A stretch of 64,000 nt of DNA. Origin: Thermoanaerobaculia bacterium. Its GTDB lineage: Bacteria > Acidobacteriota > Thermoanaerobaculia > Gp7-AA8. The position numbers and the translations under genes are program-made. Shown in pieces: positions 2,763 to 58,455 of this stretch (position 1 is its first letter; the number at the start of each line of letters is the position of its first letter). The stretch is from the NCBI GenBank assembly GCA_035996815.1, contig DASYJF010000145.1, forward strand, positions 24,345 to 88,344, written 5' to 3'. The notes beneath the pieces were generated by a model. The model did no database searches, had not been told where the DNA came from, and saw nothing but the letters and a program-made list of their open reading frames with translations.

Positions 2763-4345
2763 CACCTTCGAAGCAGCATCGCGTTGAATCGCTCGCCGCG
2801 CCAGATGTTCTCAACGTGGTACTGCGCGCGCAGCAGCGCACCAGCCCGAAGGTCGTAATCGATGCCGAAGCCGCGCGCGCCGTACTCGCGCAGATCGCGG
2901 CTGACCATCAACACGCGATCAGGAGGATGCATCGTCAGCTCGCGCACGATCGCATCCTCCGTTTGCGGCGCATCGACTTCCACCGGCGTAAACGTGTGAA
3001 AGGAAAGTGTGGTCGGCACGTTCGCCAGATAGTTGATGGTGATGCCTTCCGGGATCACCGCCAGCGTCCCGCCCTGCACCGCGCCGATGACGCTGTTCAG
3101 CGTTCGCGCCCGATCAGCGTTCCAATCGTAAAAGATTCCCCGCGGCGACACGATCGCGTACCGCTTCTCCGCGTAGCGTTCGTGCTGTTGCCAGAGATCG
3201 CCGCCGGCGTTCGCGACGAATGGCGCGAGCCACAGGATGGCCATCACGTTCCGCCGCGGCAGATAGCAGAACAACGTGTATGCGGCCAGTGCGATCGTCG
3301 GAACCGTGAGCACGAAGCCGTACCAGGACGGCGAAACGTTCAACGGAATCCGGAGCGTGCAGGCCACCGAAAAGGCCGCGAAAATCACCAGCGGGCTCTC
3401 GCGGTCGCGCACGAGCGCCCATCCGAGCGCGATCCATTGCAGCACCGCCCAGGCCCGGAAGAAGGAATGGTCAGCGATCAGAACGGCAACGATCACGATG
3501 GCAATCGCCGCTAGCCAATGCCGCCATCGCTGCAGAAACAGAATCGCCGCGATGCCGGCAATGCCGGCGGCGATCTGCAGCAGTTGACCGCGCCAATCGG
3601 CGAATCCTGAGACGACCTCGAAGAAGTGCTTCGCCCGAGCACCGTGCTGCCACGCCGCAAAGACGTTCTCGCTCCACCAGTGCGTGTCGCGAAAGTAAAA
3701 CGCGACCGCCGCGATTGTCGCGATCATCGCGACGCAGTACGCCGCCAGTTGTCGCCACGAAATCCGCCTCGCTATCGTCAGGATGATTACGATCAACAAC
3801 CCCGCGACCGCGTACTCAAGCTTGCACCACGACGCCACTACCAGCGCGCTGATCGCGATCGCGTGCCGCGCGTGTACGAACGCGGCGAGCGCGATGCACA
3901 ACAACGTCATCCCTATCGTCACGCCGTAGCTGTACGGGAAGATGAAATTCGCGCCCCACGTCGACGCGCCGCAGAAGCACGTCGCCGCGAATGTCAGCGT
4001 CGCCGCGAATGCCGGCAACGGACGCCGTAACGCAATCCACAGCGATGCAGCAATCGTCGCCGACTGCGCGATCCCGATCGCCACATACGCCGTCAGCGAG
4101 TGACCGATCGCGCCGGTGATGAGCGCCAGCAAATACGGCGCAAGCGGCGGATATTGATAGCGGATGTCGCGATACAACTTCGCGCCGCGCGCAATCTGCT
4201 CCGGGATGTACAGATCGCGCCCCGTATCGATGATCGGATCGAGCCAGCGAGCGTAGGACTGGATGAATGCGAGCGCGGCGACGACAACAACGATTCCGAT
4301 GAAGACGGGTGTCAGGTGTCGGCTGTCAGGTGTCGGAGACTCATC
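2762..4345 (-). CDS. Polytopic membrane protein, GT39/ArnT-like glycosyltransferase fold (start uncertain, probably GTG)
   Basis: More than 10 predicted TM helices followed by a soluble C-terminal domain. The N-terminal 297 codons of the track ORF 2762..5275 overlap the upstream gene and are R/G-rich, so they were trimmed. Confidence 0.45.
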   Translation of the reverse strand, partial: DESPTPDSRHLTPVFIGIVVVVAALAFIQSYARWLDPIIDTGRDLYIPEQIARGAKLYRDIRYQYPPLAPYLLALITGAIGHSLTAYVAIGIAQSATIAASLWIALRRPLPAFAATLTFAATCFCGASTWGANFIFPYSYGVTIGMTLLCIALAAFVHARHAIAISALVVASWCKLEYAVAGLLIVIILTIARRISWRQLAAYCVAMIATIAAVAFYFRDTHWWSENVFAAWQHGARAKHFFEVVSGFADWRGQLLQIAAGIAGIAAILFLQRWRHWLAAIAIVIVAVLIADHSFFRAWAVLQWIALGWALVRDRESPLVIFAAFSVACTLRIPLNVSPSWYGFVLTVPTIALAAYTLFCYLPRRNVMAILWLAPFVANAGGDLWQQHERYAEKRYAIVSPRGIFYDWNADRARTLNSVIGAVQGGTLAVIPEGITINYLANVPTTLSFHTFTPVEVDAPQTEDAIVRELTMHPPDRVLMVSRDLREYGARGFGIDYDLRAGALLRAQYHVENIWRGERFNAMLLRR

Positions 4346-4383
4346 TCCCACGCCCAACTCCCGACTCCCCACTCCCCCGAATC

Positions 4384-9430: not shown

Positions 9431-9518
9431 AAGCTTTTCACGCGGAGTCGCGGGGTCGCGGAGAAAAGCTCTCAACCTCCGCGTCTCCGCGTCTCCGCGC
9501 GAAAAGGTTCTCTGTCGC
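9430..9518. repeat. Dispersed ~87-bp palindromic element, copy B, at the convergent junction metH / TPR gene
   Basis: agcttttcacgcggagtcgcggggtcgcggagaaa…cctccgcgtctccgcgtctccgcgcgaaaagg. About 85% identical to copy A and ends with the inverted form of copy A's start. Confidence 0.6.
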
Positions 9519-16582: not shown

Positions 16583-16658
16583 TGGCTCCGGCAGTAGGAC
16601 TCGAACCTACGACCCACGGATTAACAGTCCGTTGCTCTACCAACTGAGCTATGCCGGA
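16583..16658 (-). tRNA. tRNA-Asn (anticodon GTT)
   Basis: Reverse complement gives TCCGGCATAGCTCAGTTGGTAGAGCAACGGACTGTTAATCCGTGGGTCGTAGGTTCGAGTCCTACTGCCGGAGCCA. The cloverleaf folds, the anticodon loop is CTGTTAA, and CCA is encoded. Confidence 0.9.
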
Positions 16659-29130: not shown

Positions 29131-29172
29131 CCGACCCCCGACCCCCGACCCCCGACCCCCGACCCCCGACCC
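29131..29172. repeat. Hexanucleotide microsatellite (CCGACC)x6 plus one imperfect unit, upstream of dnaA; G-rich on the opposite strand (GGGGGTC)n
   Basis: Read directly. Flanked by the inverted pair gtaggagtggggagtgg (29047-63) / ccactccccactccctac (29198-215). Confidence 0.85.
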
Positions 29173-29326
29173 CCGAGGCCCCGATCTCCCACTCCCCACT
29201 CCCTACACCCCACTCCCCGGAATAGCCCGCTATGACCAATGGTTCCGCCCCGTCGCTGGCTGGTTTGACGACCTTCCGACCCGCCGCTATACTCCCCGCC
29301 TTCTTTTTCAGAAGCTTAAGGAAATC

Positions 29327-33951: not shown

Positions 33952-33981
33952 GCGCGCGCGGGCGACTGTTCCACGTGAAAC

Positions 33982-35883
33982 ATGTTCGACGTGATTGTGA
34001 TTGGCGGAGGGCACGCCGGCGCTGAGGCTGCCCGCGTTTGCGCCCGCGGCGGCGCCCGTGTCGCGCTGCTGACGATGCTGCGCGACGCCATCGGCCGCAT
34101 GTCGTGCAACCCTGCCATCGGCGGCCTCGCCAAGGGCAACCTCGTCAAAGAGATCGACGCCCTCGGCGGTTTGATGGGGGAGGCAACCGACCGCGCAGGC
34201 ATCCAGTTCAAGGTGCTGAATCGATCGAAGGGTCCTGCCGTGCAGGGTCCGCGCGCGCAATGCGATCGCGATCTCTACGCCGACGCCGTCCAACAGATTT
34301 TGATCGATGAGCCGAACATCACCATCATCGAAGGATCCGCGACATCGCTCGTGCACGACGGCAAGTCCGTCAGCGGCGTGATGCTCAAAGACGGAACCCG
34401 CCTCGACGCGCGCGCCGTCATCGTCACCACCGGAACGTTCCTTCGCGCATTGATGCACTCCGGCGAAGTGAAAACCGTTGGCGGCCGCTTCGGCGAACCG
34501 GCGGCGGAGACGCTCTCCGACTCGCTACGCACCCTAGGCCTGAAACTCGGTCGCCTCAAGACCGGAACGCCACCTCGCGTCGACCGCACCACCGTCGATT
34601 TCTCAAAGCTCGAAGAAGCGCCAGGCGACGCCAAGCCGCGTCCGTTCTCCATCCTCACCGATGCACTGCCGCTTCCGCAGGTGCTCTGTCATCTGACCTA
34701 CACGAGCGAAATCGCGCACGAGTTGATCCGAGCCAACCTCCATCGCGCGCCGATATACTCGGGCCAGATTCACGCCACCGGTCCGCGCTACTGCCCGTCC
34801 ATCGAAGACAAGGTGGTGCGCTTCGCGGAGAAGGAGCGCCATCAGGTCTTCGTCGAGCCGGAGGGCCTGACGCATCCCTGGCTCTACATGAACGGCATCT
34901 CGACGTCGTTGCCGCCGGATGTCCAGGACGCCGTCGTCCGTTCTCTGCCCGGTTTCGAAAAAGCCGTCATCGCGCGCTACGGATATGCGGTCGAATACGA
35001 CTTCGTGAACCCCGAGCAGCTCGATCCGACGCTCCAGGTTCGCGGAGTTGACGGCCTTTTCCTCGCGGGCCAGATCAACGGCACCTCGGGATACGAAGAG
35101 GCGGCCGCGCAGGGACTCCTGGCCGGAATCAACGCGCTGCAGAAGATCCGCGGCGGCGATCCGGTCATCCTGCGTCGCGACCAGGCCTACGCCGCGGTGA
35201 TGATCGACGACCTCGTCACGCAAGGTACCGAGGAGCCGTATCGAATGTTCACCTCTCGCGCCGAGCACCGCCTGCTCCTCGGCTGCGACTCCGTTTACGA
35301 GCGGCTGTCGCCGGTCGCGGAGCGGCTGGGGATTCTCGACGATGAGCGCAAACGACGCGTCGAGCAGCGCATCGCACGCATGCAGCGGGCAAGAGCAGCG
35401 GCGGAAACCACCGTGACGCCGGACCGCGAAACGCTGGCGTGGCTGTCGGCTGCGAGCATCACATTAAATGAGAAGTCGTCGATCGCCCGGCTCATGCAGC
35501 GCGCCGATTTCGACCTCGCCGGCTTCACCGACGCGTGCGCGAACGTGCTCCCGGAGGTTGCGGAGTCGTTTCGCGTGCTCACGGAGGAAGAGTCGGATGG
35601 CGTCGTCAGTCAGCTTCGCTACGCCGGCTATATCGACCGGCAGCAGCGCGAAGCGGCGCGGCAGGCGGACGAGGAAGGCGTGCAAATCCCGGCCGACATG
35701 TCGTACGGCTTGCCGGGACTGTCGCGGGAAATGGTCGAGAAACTGAGCTTCGTCCGGCCGGTTTCACTCGGACAAGCCAGCCGCATCCCCGGCGTCACGC
35801 CCGCGGCGATCTCGATTGTGCGGATGCACCTGCGGCGCGGCGGTCGTGAAGAGTCCCGCACCTGTCATCCTGAGAGGGTGTGA
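33982..35883 (+). CDS. mnmG: tRNA uridine 5-carboxymethylaminomethyl modification enzyme MnmG (GidA)
   Basis: FDVIVIGGGHAGAEAA FAD fold, …GPRYCPSIEDK…. Confidence 0.95.
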   Translation: MFDVIVIGGGHAGAEAARVCARGGARVALLTMLRDAIGRMSCNPAIGGLAKGNLVKEIDALGGLMGEATDRAGIQFKVLNRSKGPAVQGPRAQCDRDLYADAVQQILIDEPNITIIEGSATSLVHDGKSVSGVMLKDGTRLDARAVIVTTGTFLRALMHSGEVKTVGGRFGEPAAETLSDSLRTLGLKLGRLKTGTPPRVDRTTVDFSKLEEAPGDAKPRPFSILTDALPLPQVLCHLTYTSEIAHELIRANLHRAPIYSGQIHATGPRYCPSIEDKVVRFAEKERHQVFVEPEGLTHPWLYMNGISTSLPPDVQDAVVRSLPGFEKAVIARYGYAVEYDFVNPEQLDPTLQVRGVDGLFLAGQINGTSGYEEAAAQGLLAGINALQKIRGGDPVILRRDQAYAAVMIDDLVTQGTEEPYRMFTSRAEHRLLLGCDSVYERLSPVAERLGILDDERKRRVEQRIARMQRARAAAETTVTPDRETLAWLSAASITLNEKSSIARLMQRADFDLAGFTDACANVLPEVAESFRVLTEEESDGVVSQLRYAGYIDRQQREAARQADEEGVQIPADMSYGLPGLSREMVEKLSFVRPVSLGQASRIPGVTPAAISIVRMHLRRGGREESRTCHPERV

Positions 35884-35912
35884 AGAAATGTGGCCCAATT
35901 TCGTGCGAAGCA

Positions 35913-36058
35913 CTTTGGAGTGCGGTGGCGATCGAGCCACCGCTTTGGGAGGGCGGTGGAACTGTGACAACTCGCAGTGTGTGATGCTTGCTCGATCGTC
36001 GCGATGGTTACCGTCATCCTCCCTCCCAAAGCGGTGGCTCGATCGCCACACTCCAAAG
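35913..36058. repeat. ~145-bp palindromic element (41-bp arms, ~64-bp spacer) in the mnmG–rsmG spacer
   Basis: ctttggagtgcggtggcgatcgagccaccgctttgggaggg … ccctcccaaagcggtggctcgatcgccacactccaaag. Each arm also contains the self-complementary gtggcgatcgagccac. Confidence 0.6.
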
Positions 36059-36174
36059 CTTCGCGAAATATGCCGTGAGTCGTGTAAGCACGAAGCCGTC
36101 CTACCTTTCTTCACAAGCTCGGAGCCGCCGGAACGGCGCAGGCGAAATGACAGTGGTCCCGCGGTGCAGAAGCC

Positions 36175-36741
36175 GTGAGTCGCGACTGTCGGCTGGAGAC
36201 GTACAAGCGCGAGCTTCTGCGTTGGAACGAGCGGATCAACCTCATCGGTCCGGAGGCAAAGGAAAATATCGACGCCCACATCGACGAAGCGGTCATTGCG
36301 GCGAACATCCTGAAGCCGTCCGGCAACGTGCTCGACTTCGGCAGCGGGGGAGGATTGCCGGCCATTCCGATGGCAATCGTCTCGCCCGACGCGCGGTTTC
36401 ACCTCGTCGAAGCCGACAAGAAAAAGTGGGCGTTCCTGAAACACATCGTGCGGGCGTGCGAATTGAACGCTGTGATTTACGGTGATAGATTGGCGCGCGC
36501 CGTGACGCGGTTCCCGCCTGAGCTTCGATTTTCCCTGGTTACTTCGCGCGCAGTCGGAAATCCCGAGGAATGGGTGCCGTCGCTGGTGCCATGGATGGAG
36601 CGGGGCGGGCGCGTAGCACTCTTTCAAAGCAATCCGGACGTTCCTGGGATCAACGGTTTCGCGAAAAGCGAAGTCTTTCCGCTTCCCCGGGGAACCTCGA
36701 ATTTCCTCGTCACGCTCACGTTCCACGTGGAACAACACTAG
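36175..36741 (+). CDS. rsmG: 16S rRNA (guanine527-N7)-methyltransferase RsmG (GidB)
   Basis: SAM-binding LDFGSGGGLPAIP and gid-operon context. Confidence 0.85.
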   Translation: MSRDCRLETYKRELLRWNERINLIGPEAKENIDAHIDEAVIAANILKPSGNVLDFGSGGGLPAIPMAIVSPDARFHLVEADKKKWAFLKHIVRACELNAVIYGDRLARAVTRFPPELRFSLVTSRAVGNPEEWVPSLVPWMERGGRVALFQSNPDVPGINGFAKSEVFPLPRGTSNFLVTLTFHVEQH

Positions 36742-37509: not shown

Positions 37510-38375
37510 TGATCCACAAGAAAGTGCTCGGCCGCGGTCTCGGCGCTCTCATCCCGCAACGGCAGGAGGCGCCGGTCGAGTCGCACGCGACGCAGGGGCT
37601 GGCCGAGATTCCGATCTCGCAGATTCAGCCGAATCCCTTCCAGCCGCGCAAGACGTTCAACGAAGCGTCGATCGACGAGCTGGCGCGCAGCGTCCGCGAG
37701 CACGGCATCGTGCAGCCGCTCGTCGTCACGCGCGCCGGCGACAAGTACAAGCTCATCGCCGGCGAGCGCCGCTTCCGCGCCGCGCAGAAGGCCGGCCTGA
37801 CCACGGTCCCCGTCCTCATCAAAGAGATGATGGCCGAGGGCGACGCGCTGCAGATCGCGCTCATCGAAAACATCCAGCGCGAAGACCTGAACCCGATCGA
37901 AGAGGCGATGGCGTATCACCAGCTCCACGACGATTTTCAATTGACGCAGGAGGAGATCTCACGCCGCGTCGGCAAGGAGCGCTCGACCGTCGCCAACTTC
38001 CTGCGGCTTCTCAAGCTGCCCGATCCGGTCAAGAAGCTGCTCGCGTCCGGACAGCTCTCGATGGGTCATGCACGCGCATTGCTCGCGATTGAGTCGCCGA
38101 AGAAGCAGGAGCAGCTCGCCGAACGCGTTGTCCGCAAGAACCTCAACGTCCGGCAGACGGAGATGCTCGCTTCGGAAAGCTCGCCGAAGACGGCGGAAAA
38201 GAAAGAGAAAGAGAAGGACGTCTTCACGCGCGACGCGGAAGACAAGCTTCAAAGGACTTTACGAACGAAAGTTGAAATCGACCGCAGACGCCGAGGGGGT
38301 GTGATTCACATCCGCTACGGCAGCGAAGACGAACTGATTCGCGTCGTCGATGAGCTCATGGGACGGCGACGGTAA
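37509..38375 (+). CDS. parB: Chromosome partitioning protein ParB/Spo0J
   Basis: ParB box GERRFRAA and an HTH. Confidence 0.9.
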   Translation: MIHKKVLGRGLGALIPQRQEAPVESHATQGLAEIPISQIQPNPFQPRKTFNEASIDELARSVREHGIVQPLVVTRAGDKYKLIAGERRFRAAQKAGLTTVPVLIKEMMAEGDALQIALIENIQREDLNPIEEAMAYHQLHDDFQLTQEEISRRVGKERSTVANFLRLLKLPDPVKKLLASGQLSMGHARALLAIESPKKQEQLAERVVRKNLNVRQTEMLASESSPKTAEKKEKEKDVFTRDAEDKLQRTLRTKVEIDRRRRGGVIHIRYGSEDELIRVVDELMGRRR

Positions 38376-38376
38376 T

Positions 38377-38760
38377 ATGGGAGCAGAGATGAAGAACAAG
38401 AGTGGTGAACTGAACGGCTTTCTCGATCGCGGCTCGTCGTTTCGCGGCGAGCTGGAATTCGAAGACACGATGCGCATCGACGGCCGTTTCAACGGCAAGA
38501 TCATGACGAAGAATGAGCTGATCGTCGGCGAGAGCGCGCAGATCGAGGGCGAGATCCACGCCGGCCGCATCGCCATCAGCGGCACGGTCGTCGGCAAGAT
38601 CATCGCGGCGCAGCGCGTCGAGATCCATCGCAACGGCAAGGTCTACAGCGACATCGACACGCCCGCGCTGATCATCGAGGAAGGCGCGATCTTCCAGGGC
38701 AACTGCGTGATGGGCGACAAGAAGCCGGCGCTGGTGACGAACATCGCTGCAAAGGCGTGA
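38377..38760 (+). CDS. Bactofilin
   Basis: Beta-helical repeat core (…IDGRFNGKI…GESAQIEGEIHAGRIAISGTVVGKI…VEIHRNGKVYSDI…). Start chosen to avoid overlap with parB. Confidence 0.7.
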   Translation: MGAEMKNKSGELNGFLDRGSSFRGELEFEDTMRIDGRFNGKIMTKNELIVGESAQIEGEIHAGRIAISGTVVGKIIAAQRVEIHRNGKVYSDIDTPALIIEEGAIFQGNCVMGDKKPALVTNIAAKA

Positions 38761-38799
38761 CGCTGCGGTGCGAGCATCGACTGCAGCAATATGACAAAC

Positions 38800-38967
38800 G
38801 ATTGCAGAGCTGCGATCGGTGATTACGGAGCTGCGATCGGCGATTACAGAGTTTCGATCGACGATTACAGAGTTGCGATCAACGATTACAGAGCTGTGAT
38901 CGATGATTACAGCGATGTCCAGATTTGTCGCAGAGCTGTAATGGCTGATTACAGCTACGTCTGGATG
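38800..38967. repeat. 21-bp-period tandem array A (5 good + 3 degenerate units; consensus gattacagagctgcgatcggc)
   Basis: Read directly. The array is contiguous with no unique spacers, so it is not a CRISPR. Confidence 0.8.
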
Positions 38968-39015
38968 TTGAACACCAGTTCTAAATCAGGACACATTAGG
39001 ACACGATTCTGACAG

Positions 39016-39597
39016 CTACCACCCTCGCATCCTCGCGGTCAGCACGATCGCCTCAGGGATCGTGTACACATCCTCGGCGCCGAGCGCGTCTTCCCATTGC
39101 AGGTCCCAGGCGGCGGCTTCGCGATCGCCTTGCGGCGCGTCCGTGAAATTCAACTCGCAGACATCGCCGATGTACTCGTCCGCATTGCGCAGCGGCAAAC
39201 CGAACGTGCGGCAGACCAGAGGACGGTTGTCGTACATCAGGCACTCGCCGCGCTCGTTCAGATTCGGACAAGGCGTCGACGCGGTGCGCTCGAAGAACGC
39301 GTCCTTCTCCTCGGGTGCACAATCGCGAAGATCAGGATGATTGGACGCCGCGATGATCTCCTGCGACCGTCGAATGACCATCTTCCGCCGCGACGGATGC
39401 AGTTTCTCCAGACCCTCAGCAATCAGTGGAACGTCGCCGGAGCCGATCTCGAACAGGCCGTAGCAACAGAGCGAACATCCGCGTCCGCACTGCAGGTTCT
39501 GCGGCTGCGACTCGACGACAGACCGGAAGAAATCGTCGGCGCGATCGAGGATGCGCGTGTACGTTTCGTCCGGCGATTTCGTGGACACGCGACGCAC
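39016..39597 (-). CDS. YkgJ-family Zn/Fe-S cluster-like protein (CxxCxxCC), divergent from the atp operon
   Basis: …CGRGCSLCCYGLF… and …CRTFGLPLR… motifs. The upstream 183 codons of the track ORF are antisense to atpF' and were trimmed. Confidence 0.5.
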   Translation of the reverse strand: MRRVSTKSPDETYTRILDRADDFFRSVVESQPQNLQCGRGCSLCCYGLFEIGSGDVPLIAEGLEKLHPSRRKMVIRRSQEIIAASNHPDLRDCAPEEKDAFFERTASTPCPNLNERGECLMYDNRPLVCRTFGLPLRNADEYIGDVCELNFTDAPQGDREAAAWDLQWEDALGAEDVYTIPEAIVLTARMRGW

Positions 39598-39699
39598 AAC
39601 CGGTGAGGTGACAACCTTCTTTCCCTTGTGGTATACAACCGCCGCCTCGGGGTTGGGCGCGGCTCTCACGTGCCCGTTTTTCCGGCTCCAAACATTTCT

Positions 39700-55682: not shown

Positions 55683-56060
55683 ATTCAAAACACAATCTCC
55701 TTGAATCGCAGACAAATCCTCTGATTCAGTCGACAGACTCTCTGGGTCGTTAGACAGACTTTTTGGATCGTTAGACACAGTTTTTGGACCGCGAGACATA
55801 CTTTCTGGGTCGTTAGACACACTTTTTGGATAGCGAGACCCACTCTCTGGATAGCGAGACAGACTCTTTGGGTCGCTAGACAGATTGATTCGATCGGATG
55901 ACCCACTTCATGGGTCGACTGACATACTTTTGGATCGCTAACCAAACTTCCTGGGTCAGCAGACAGGCTCTTTGGGTCAATCGGCAATACGCTTGGGCCG
56001 CTCAACTCGTGGTTTGGTTCGGTAGATCAACCGTTTGATCGGTAGGCGTGCAGGATCGGC
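55683..56060. repeat. 21-bp-period degenerate tandem array B (~17 units; consensus tggatcgttagacagactttt), lower GC than its surroundings
   Basis: Read directly. The units are contiguous and degenerate, with no spacers. Confidence 0.75.
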
Positions 56061-57077: not shown

Positions 57078-58367
57078 GTGAAACTGTTTCGCGGCCGGAT
57101 TTTTTCGCCGATTGCTGATCCCTTCACCGTCGATCCGGCGAAGTCGTATGTCTACTACGACGACGGCTTTCTGGCAGTCGACGGCGATCGGATCACCGGC
57201 GTCGGTGCATGGCGCGACGTTCCGCGGCAGAGCTCGACGCTGACGCAACTCGGACGCGATGTCCTCATCACGCCGGGATTTGTCGACACGCACCTTCACG
57301 CGCCGCAGCTCGAGATGATCGGATCGTACGGCGGCGACCTGCTCGAGTGGCTTAACCGCTACACGTTTCCGACCGAGGCCAAGTTCAGCGATCCGAAGCA
57401 TGCGGAGATGGTGGCGCGTATCTTTTTCGAGGAGCTGCTGCGCAACGGGACGTTGTGCGCGCTGATCTTTTCCACGATTCACGAACGCGCCACGGAGATT
57501 TTTTTCGAGGAAGCGGAGCGGCGCGGATTCCGGGCAATCATCGGCAAGACGATGATGGATCGCAATGCGCCGCCCTCGTTGCTGGAAACGCCGAAGCAGT
57601 CGTACGACGAGAGCCGCGCGCTACTTCAGAAATGGCACAAGCGTGGACTGCTGCGTTACGCGATCACGCCGCGCTTCGCGCCGACGTCGACGCCGGAGTT
57701 GCTCGAAGCGGCGGGACAACTCAAGCGCGAGTTCCCGGATGCGTACGTTCACTCGCACATCTCCGAGAATCGCAACGAGGTGCAGTGGGTTCACGACCTC
57801 TTCCCCGAGGCCGAGTACGCGGATGTGTACGATCGGTATGGCCTGCTCGACGAGCGCAGCGTCCTCGCGCACGGCGTCCACCTGACGGAAGAAGAGCTGG
57901 AACTACTCGCGCATCGCGGCACGCGCATCGCGCACTGCCCGAATTCAAACCTCTTCCTCGGCAGCGGCCTTTTCCGCCTTCACCACACGCTCGAAGCCGG
58001 CGTCGTCGTCGGCCTCGGCACGGACATTGGCGCAGGCACGACGCCGTCGATGTTCACGACGATGTCGGACGCGTACAAAGTCCAGCAGGTACAAGGCGTG
58101 TCGCTGACTCCGTTTCACCTCTGGTACCTGGCCTCGCTCGGCGGGGCGCGCGCGTTGTCGCTGGATGCCGAGTCCGGCAGTCTGGAGCCTGGCAAGTCGG
58201 CCGACTTTCTCCAGCTCGATCTGAAGTCGACACCGCTCGTTGCCTTGCGAAGCGAACGCGCATCCTCGGTCGAAGATCTCCTCGCCGGACTGATCTTCAC
58301 CGCCGACGATCGCGTCGTCCGCGAGTGCTGGATCGCCGGGCAAGTGGTCGCGACGCGGAGCCCGTGA
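57078..58367 (+). CDS. guaD: Guanine deaminase
   Basis: Amidohydrolase HxH (FVDTHLHAPQ), HSHISEN, HCPNSN, GLGTDIGAG. Confidence 0.8.
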   Translation: MKLFRGRIFSPIADPFTVDPAKSYVYYDDGFLAVDGDRITGVGAWRDVPRQSSTLTQLGRDVLITPGFVDTHLHAPQLEMIGSYGGDLLEWLNRYTFPTEAKFSDPKHAEMVARIFFEELLRNGTLCALIFSTIHERATEIFFEEAERRGFRAIIGKTMMDRNAPPSLLETPKQSYDESRALLQKWHKRGLLRYAITPRFAPTSTPELLEAAGQLKREFPDAYVHSHISENRNEVQWVHDLFPEAEYADVYDRYGLLDERSVLAHGVHLTEEELELLAHRGTRIAHCPNSNLFLGSGLFRLHHTLEAGVVVGLGTDIGAGTTPSMFTTMSDAYKVQQVQGVSLTPFHLWYLASLGGARALSLDAESGSLEPGKSADFLQLDLKSTPLVALRSERASSVEDLLAGLIFTADDRVVRECWIAGQVVATRSP

Positions 58368-58455
58368 GTGGATTAGTGGATTCGTCGATTAGTAGATTAG
58401 GACGCTGCTTGGGGATCTCCGCTCTAATCGACTAATCCACCAATCGACTAATCAC
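58368..58455. terminator. Long imperfect palindrome built from GATTAG/CTAATC units (32-bp arms, 23-nt spacer) right after guaD
   Basis: gtggattagtggattcgtcgattagtagattag … ctaatcgactaatccaccaatcgactaatcac. Confidence 0.5.

Follow-up and report, generated by a model that had tools for sequence, protein, structure and literature searches.

What is a row of 21-bp repeats doing in the short gap behind a parAB operon, and does it do anything there at all? The question is raised by array A, a tandem array in the genome of a soil bacterium of the Thermoanaerobaculia (Acidobacteriota), known from soil metagenomes, which we analyzed within a 64,000-nucleotide stretch of DNA (hereafter the window). The first-pass annotation of the window had offered two answers: an array of protein-binding sites, iteron-like or centromere-like in view of the adjacent ParAB, or a VNTR. 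We favor, with a probability of roughly 60%, a lineage-specific, non-coding minisatellite with a palindromic unit, situated in a dispensable convergent gap and having at most a hairpin- or terminator-like role. Taken alone, array A would matter little, as one more strain-specific intergenic repeat. Its one unusual trait is a period of 21-22 bp that unrelated arrays in related genomes have in common; specific binding by a protein is the route by which it could prove interesting.

Structure and genomic setting of the array

Array A lies between two converging genes (Table 1). On the forward strand mnmE, mnmG, rsmG, parA, parB and bactofilin follow one another in this order, with bactofilin closing the run mnmG-rsmG-parA-parB-bactofilin, and an ATP synthase operon is found beyond the CxxCxxCC gene. 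The gap, which had been described as non-coding and about 250 bp long, measures 255 bp between the bactofilin stop on the plus strand and the stop of the converging CxxCxxCC gene on the minus strand, and has a GC content of 0.49 versus 0.62 for the window. Array A lies 385 bp downstream of parB.

The tandem arrangement was recovered by TRF with a score of 153, a period of 21 bp, 84% matches and 5.5 copies. In the register of the first-pass annotation the well-kept units start at 38800, 38821, 38842, 38863 and 38884, and the consensus GATTACAGAGCTGCGATCGGC is matched by these five units at no more than three mismatches (38800-38904), compared with none in 100 shuffles, and the description of five good and three degenerate units holds. 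The repeat family continues upstream in the same 21-bp register as far as 38771, and in total array A comprises about nine head-to-tail copies, with five well preserved and decay in the outer ones. Since both edges are decayed (38777-38967 overall), the array has the age pattern typical of an ageing tandem array. A search of the 64-kb window at up to three mismatches found no further copies of the unit. No spacers separate the units, which adjoin one another directly, unlike the repeats of a CRISPR; they are VNTR-like in being head-to-tail, non-coding and at least 10 bp long.

The unit of array A reads as a quasi-palindrome, GATTACAG-AG-CTGCGATC, and a 3-bp linker of variable sequence separates it from the next. 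The arms are 8 bp and the spacer 2 bp; six of eight arm positions form Watson-Crick pairs, and units 1 and 5 reach 8/8 when G.U pairs are counted. The changes between units fall mainly in the linker; the core GATTACAGAG.T..GATC is retained, and GATC itself occurs in every unit. A Dam/SeqA-type GATC cluster was considered and rejected, as GATC abounds in the whole window (O/E 2.9; CGATCG 6.3) and equally dense in other regions.

Array A is not a product of k-mer assembly, an explanation ruled out by the divergence among its units and by its identical presence in independent assemblies: JGI 3300035671 (contig Ga0372940_0000192) and Logan SRR11678566, the latter from a different assembly pipeline, these identical copies representing no independent strain. 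An artefact is further excluded because a sister array (in locus L011) sits in a whole-chromosome record, OY970284.1. The sole other copies of array A, in loci L001 and L069, are identical to that of the window. Strain variants gave no matches in a pattern scan of JGI metagenomes, and exact-protein look-ups for variants returned identical contigs only.

Table 1. Positions in the window of array A, its neighboring genes and related features
Feature	Position	Strand	Basis and details
Perfect canonical parS, TGTTCCACGTGAAACA	33967-33982	.	Pattern search; between mnmE and mnmG, overlaps mnmG start codon
Second parS, two mismatches	36719-36734	.	Pattern search; end of rsmG, just before parA
Bactofilin gene	38350-38760	+	PF04519, E 6e-29; JGI-called start 38377
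Non-coding gap	38761-39015	.	ORF list, Pfam, JGI gene calls on identical contig L069, composition
Upstream decayed unit of array A	38777-38797	.	10/21 consensus matches, counted in the sequence; in 21-bp register
73-aa ORF, AAIGDYR-type heptads	38791-39012	+	Spurious by composition; no Pfam match, no homologue
Core of array A, 5.5 well-kept 21-bp units	38798-38912	.	TRF
Long imperfect hairpin, predicted transcript	38829-38956	+	Apex is unit 5; units 2-4 pair with units 6-8
Three degenerate 3' units of array A	38903-38967	.	Inverted repeats I1-I3, register print, MFE structure
Hairpin of the 3' units	38918-38965		TCCAGA/TCTGGA (38918-38923 with 38960-38965) and AGCTGTAAT/ATTACAGCT (38934-38942 with 38948-38956)
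CxxCxxCC gene (YkgJ-like zinc/iron-chelating domain)	39016-39597	-	PF03692; JGI call of 193 aa
Array B, second 21-bp array	55732-56060		About 10 clear and about 6 decayed units of GACAGACTYTYTGGRTCGYTA; 63-bp higher-order period

The same gap in related genomes

To place array A in its lineage, we compared the gap with its counterparts in 43 related genomes, collected via ParB (74-99% identity), and in 80 metagenome loci collected via the CxxCxxCC protein. The order parB, bactofilin, converging CxxCxxCC gene is kept in most loci (about 110 Thermoanaerobaculia). Array A is absent from all of these approximately 110 syntenic relatives, including those whose ParB is 98-100% identical, and no match to it was found in plasmids, phages, IMG/VR or the JGI metagenome pattern scan; a mobile, plasmid or phage origin was rejected on the lack of any match in plasmids, phages and IMG/VR.

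The gap itself ranges from 0 to more than 2.5 kb across relatives and is occupied by unrelated fillers. Among 73 distinct gaps, 12 are no longer than 15 bp, 8 measure 16-60 bp, 24 measure 61-150 bp, 8 measure 151-420 bp and 21 are longer, and as 12 of the 73 are thus at most 15 bp long, nothing essential is located in the gap. Some of the fillers are short, GC-rich hairpins and others are MITE-like palindromes, which fall into two or more families; in yet other gaps tandem heptamers form the arms of a hairpin, e.g. (TTGTCGG)n...(CCGACAA)n, and further tandem arrays also occur. When the distinct gaps of 30-420 nt were folded, 34 of 38 had z below -3 relative to shuffles (median -7.1), and the feature common to relatives' gaps is structure rather than sequence.

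Turnover is fast elsewhere in the class. The loci L006, L011 and L012 have flanks that are 95% identical and fillers that are entirely different. Loci L023 and L108, with flanks 92.5% identical, carry homologous arrays of approximately 6 versus 11 copies of diverged units, and L027 carries no array where these two do. The earlier suggestion of a VNTR fits: the site is hypervariable, array A is lineage-specific and the L023/L108 pair differs in copy number; the copies of array A itself (L001, L069) are all identical. Array A resembles the MIRU-type mycobacterial VNTRs, these also being head-to-tail repeats of tens of bp that are intergenic, lineage-specific, quick to turn over and decayed at their edges; array A differs from them in that its observed copies are all identical, its unit is quasi-palindromic and its clade prefers periods of 21-22 bp.

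On our preferred reading, slipped-strand mispairing or unequal recombination most likely gave rise to array A and remodeled it, in a gap between the converging parAB-bactofilin operon and CxxCxxCC gene that would tolerate almost any filler. By computation, the nearly self-complementary unit, together with the inverted 3' units, would let the array fold as one long hairpin, and in relatives the same niche is held by unrelated hairpin fillers such as REP/MITE-like palindromes and hairpins with tandem-heptamer arms. By analogy with these, array A would serve at most as a transcript-end hairpin or as a spacer between converging transcription units, and it may do nothing. Tandem repeats are in general enriched in the intergenic space of prokaryotes (PMC12418385). 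Neutral slippage leaves the recurring 21-22 bp period, described below, without an explanation.

Predicted folding and a possible role in the transcript

Because the unit is quasi-palindromic and one of the decayed 3' units contains an inverted copy of GATTACAG, a transcript of array A is predicted to form a long imperfect hairpin (Table 1). The strands differ in this respect. The gap (38761-39015) folds on the plus strand with an MFE of -94.3 kcal/mol (z about -5.2 to -5.5; 0/200 shuffles as good), far better than the -73.6 kcal/mol (z -2.2) of the minus strand, and with G.U pairs allowed 36 of 40 unit cells are paired on the plus strand. Most substitutions in the arms preserve pairing on the plus strand only, through G.U, in about six events that are not significant alone; the linker-biased variation and these G.U-compatible arm changes hint at selection on array A.

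Such predictions would suit a functional RNA within the 3' UTR of the parAB-bactofilin mRNA, in which stem-loops in series, or a single long stem, would act to end transcription or to shield the 3' end. A strong hairpin is almost always present in the gap of relatives, which agrees with this model, as do the strand bias of the fold and of the arm substitutions. We nevertheless judge it unlikely. The gap is essentially missing in 12 of 73 relatives, covariation in the unit hairpins is suggestive for array A from some six events and is absent for array B, where the unit hairpin is not maintained, and array A has no match in Rfam, the sole Rfam match in the window being a tRNA at 16586-16658. No consensus promoter was found in the array A region. 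A role in termination is an analogy only, because no U-tract follows the array A hairpin and no consensus terminator is present; the only terminator-like site (39654-39676) is far off.

In its position and symmetry array A also recalls enterobacterial REP/BIME elements and MITE-like palindromes, which are extragenic, imperfect, hairpin-forming palindromes that measure 20-40 bp, sit where transcription units end and share the niche of the fillers in relatives. The array A unit is likewise an extragenic imperfect palindrome at the 3' ends of genes. REPs, however, occur in hundreds of dispersed copies, usually in alternating orientation, whereas the array A unit is confined to a single array within 64 kb and is repeated in direct orientation.

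A recurring period of two helical turns

Tandem arrays were sought by TRF in approximately 0.93 Mb of sequence from the clade, counting those with 3.5 or more copies and a period no shorter than 9 bp. This search uncovered ten arrays with a period of 21 bp and one each of 22, 43 and 44 bp, along with two of 24 bp (one of them coding), four of 9 bp and four of 12 bp. Counting the homologous arrays of L023 and L108 as one, and leaving out coding arrays and those with a period below 13 bp, gave 13 independent arrays, of which 9 have a period of exactly 21 bp and another 3 have periods of 22, 43 or 44 bp. By eye, the units of 43 and 44 bp resemble dimers of 21-22 bp whose halves have diverged, and several of the 21-bp arrays have higher-order periods of 42 or 63 bp. 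Of the first-pass description, the remark on two helical turns per unit is the most interesting, since unrelated arrays of the clade have this period too. To our knowledge, a sharp preference for 21-22 bp is not a property of VNTRs.

The unit sequences of these arrays are mutually unrelated. Non-coding gaps are the site of all 13 independent arrays, and the AT content of most of these arrays is above that of their own genomes. Arrays occur in the bactofilin/CxxCxxCC gap of L128, L074 (43 bp x 16), L089 and L108/L023, directly after bactofilin in L011 and L012, and between mnmE and mnmG in L007, L019 and L037. A redundant sample of 322 kb around the mdh locus, from about five species, contained no such arrays, so they are sporadic rather than ubiquitous. 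The literature we searched on 21-bp or helically phased intergenic arrays, or on Thermoanaerobaculia repeats, held nothing relevant.

Two structural origins of the period were considered and found no support. For a higher-order repeat of heptamers (7 to 21 bp), the unit consensuses gave a lag-7 autocorrelation of 49 versus 41.5 +/- 5.5, which is not significant (p about 0.1). Intrinsic curvature through helical phasing was assessed with two wedge models; in neither did the arrays bend more than controls built from shuffled units, and array A came out almost straight. Dyad symmetry, in turn, is enriched overall and not universal: the summed palindrome score of the units exceeds that of shuffled units (p about 0.004), with clear dyads in L128 (TGCCCA-N4-TGGGCA) and L019 (TATCGA-N-TCGATA) and no significant dyad in L012, L108 or the array B consensus. 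The preference for this period is compatible with 1) protein binding on the same face of the helix, 2) a preferred hairpin size, or 3) a mutational ruler.

The first of these leads to an improbable proposal, that array A is a row of sites for a sequence-specific, probably dimeric protein that would read one face of the helix, in the manner of iterons or F sopC. Phasing of 19-22 bp is typical of iterons, and F sopC consists of 12 x 43 bp units with an inverted repeat in each. The gene for this protein would lie in another part of the genome or on a mobile element, and array A might then be an incompatibility site, an anchor or a decoy that titrates the protein. An inverted repeat with 8-bp arms, a 2-bp spacer and a variable linker is what such a site could look like, and the proposal draws further on the exact period, on the 12 of 13 independent arrays with periods of 21-22 bp or 43-44 bp diverged dimers, and on the dyads of L128, L019 and the ancestral array B unit, with the summed palindrome score in agreement. 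The surroundings of array A argue against it. By Pfam and JGI calls both flanks are core genes, and no candidate gene for a binding protein adjoins the array; single sites elsewhere in the 64 kb do not exceed chance; the closest relatives lack the array; plasmids and phages hold no match; and the units of L012, L108 and array B lack a significant dyad. As every array has a different unit, a binding array would moreover need many different proteins.

It is quite doubtful that array A belongs to a so far unrecognized class of Thermoanaerobaculia arrays, in which the units are mutually unrelated and often dyad-bearing but always repeat at two helical turns (21-22 bp, or 43-44 bp where dimers have diverged). 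If such a class is real, it would point to a protein or process that reads one face of the DNA, with the arrays as strain-specific binding arrays, for instance decoys, anchors or incompatibility sites directed against mobile elements, or to a mutational "ruler" that makes duplications of 21-22 bp. Should the 21-22 bp regularity extend genome-wide, either DNA structure or the binding of a protein would have to account for it, or else a mutational mechanism that is new.

Relation to ParABS and to replication origins

The proximity of array A to parAB had invited comparison with centromeres and iterons. Repeat-type centromeres of the sopC/parC kind are similar in that the units of array A carry an inverted repeat and adjoin a parAB operon. 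In contrast to those systems, ParB here is of the chromosomal type with its own canonical parS, and array A is not co-conserved with parAB. With a chromosomal parS, which is a single 16-bp palindrome, array A shares only the proximity to parAB. A search for parS-like 16-bp palindromes (TGTTNCACGTGAAACA, at most three mismatches) matched the window only at the two sites listed in Table 1 and nowhere in 38761-39015. These parS sites remove the tempting link between array A and ParAB as wrong, and together with the lack of conservation of array A, which is absent from the syntenic relatives, they led us to reject a ParB centromere; the centromere-like reading is not supported.

The related idea that array A is a ParB-bound accessory centromere or a boundary element of the adjacent ParABS system, we consider very improbable. 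Besides the short distance from parB, it could appeal to the clustering of relatives' arrays at both ends of the mnmG-rsmG-parAB-bactofilin block, a pattern seen in a sample that was centred on this block. Against it stand the canonical parS sites with nothing parS-like in array A, the relatives that lack the array despite a ParB of 98-100% identity, and array B, whose distance to the nearest parS is about 19 kb and whose gap holds ordinary MITE-like elements in relatives. The ParB-centromere reading is disfavored, and so is that of a small protein, treated below.

The iteron reading fared no better. Array A has the layout of the plasmid iterons of R6K, RK2, F and P1, i.e. five or more direct repeats, each of some 20 bp, at a spacing of about 21-22 bp, and differs from them in being chromosomal, between core genes, with no rep gene, unwinding element, nearby DnaA boxes or plasmid similarity. 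DnaA boxes are in no excess in the window (3 versus 3.2 expected), none is near array A, and no AT-rich unwinding element was found at the array. On the DnaA-box level, the absence of a clear GC-skew turn at the site and the missing rep gene, an oriC or iteron origin was rejected.

An open reading frame across the array

The repeat can be read as a protein, and the JGI gene caller has done so, placing a "hypothetical protein" over array A (L069 2708-2929, equivalent to 38791-39012 of the window). The AAIGDYR heptapeptide repeat given by the first-pass annotation is a correct reading; its statement that the 3' units lose the frame is wrong, as the frame is open from the ATG at 38791 through the whole of array A to the stop at 39010-39012. 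That the array encodes a small 73-aa protein of AAIGDYR heptads and variants, as this open frame, its call by the JGI pipeline and the match of 21 nt to seven codons would suggest, is extremely unlikely. GC at codon positions 1/2/3 is 0.44/0.44/0.52 versus approximately 0.65/0.40/0.83 in neighboring genes; the ORF has no Pfam match and, among 5.8 billion proteins, matches only itself; and differences between units, as read from the sequence, hit all three codon positions. The ORF is missing from relatives, where a conserved heptad-repeat gene that could explain the periodicity was looked for and no such gene was found. A coding heptad repeat was rejected on the composition, the lack of homologues and the periods of sister arrays (22, 43 and 44 bp), none of them divisible by three. 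The JGI "hypothetical protein" is probably a false gene call, probably caused by the stop-free 21-bp unit, and its spurious presence over array A is worth knowing for annotation.

Other repeats in the window and in relatives

Array B lies between mdh and a PolB-exonuclease-like gene, and its ancestral unit looks like GACCCA-N5-TGGGTC. The corresponding gap of relatives contains MITE-like palindromes of the same families as other gaps, or measures only 34 bp.

Several further repeats of the window are built from short tandem motifs. The segments 2687-2760 and 9433-9505 belong to one hairpin family with octamer arms, (ACGCGGAG)x3 ... (CTCCGCGT)x3, and flanks CTTTTC/GAAAAG. These octamer-arm hairpins have an MFE of about -56 to -59 kcal/mol and a REP- or terminator-like look, and they are also found before the 21-bp array of L007. 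Intergenic short repeats at 4305-4380 consist of (GGTGTCR)n paired with (CCCACTC)n, and those at 58367-58453 of (AGTGGATT)x4 paired with (CTAATCGA)x4; at 29131-29218, (CCGACCC)x6.6 is followed by (CCCACTC)x4.4, with a G-rich complement and no hairpin. The short repeats at these three positions resemble the STRR heptamers of cyanobacteria. The mnmG-rsmG gap (35884-36174) contains a very long, near-perfect palindrome with an MFE of -141.8 kcal/mol for 291 nt and the look of a MITE insertion.

The window contains 13 CTAG sites (O/E 0.06), a strong avoidance of this tetramer. The 14-unit array of L037 (2277-2570) has two CTAGs in each 21-bp unit (CTAGG-N7-CCTAG). After bactofilin, the close relatives L006 and L012 have further lineage-specific repeats around CCATGG palindromes: one of about 168 bp in L006 (7331-8000), and CTTACCATGGTAAG motifs on either side of the 21-bp array in L012 (7440-7800). 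Two MITE-like palindromic families recur in varied intergenic gaps of many Thermoanaerobaculia, with the forms CTGTCATCCTGA...TCAGGATGACAG and ...GCAGGATCTCCGGT...ACCGGAGATCCTG...; loci with these two families are L003, L077, L078, L150, L153 and L018, L071, L072, L076, L081, L156.
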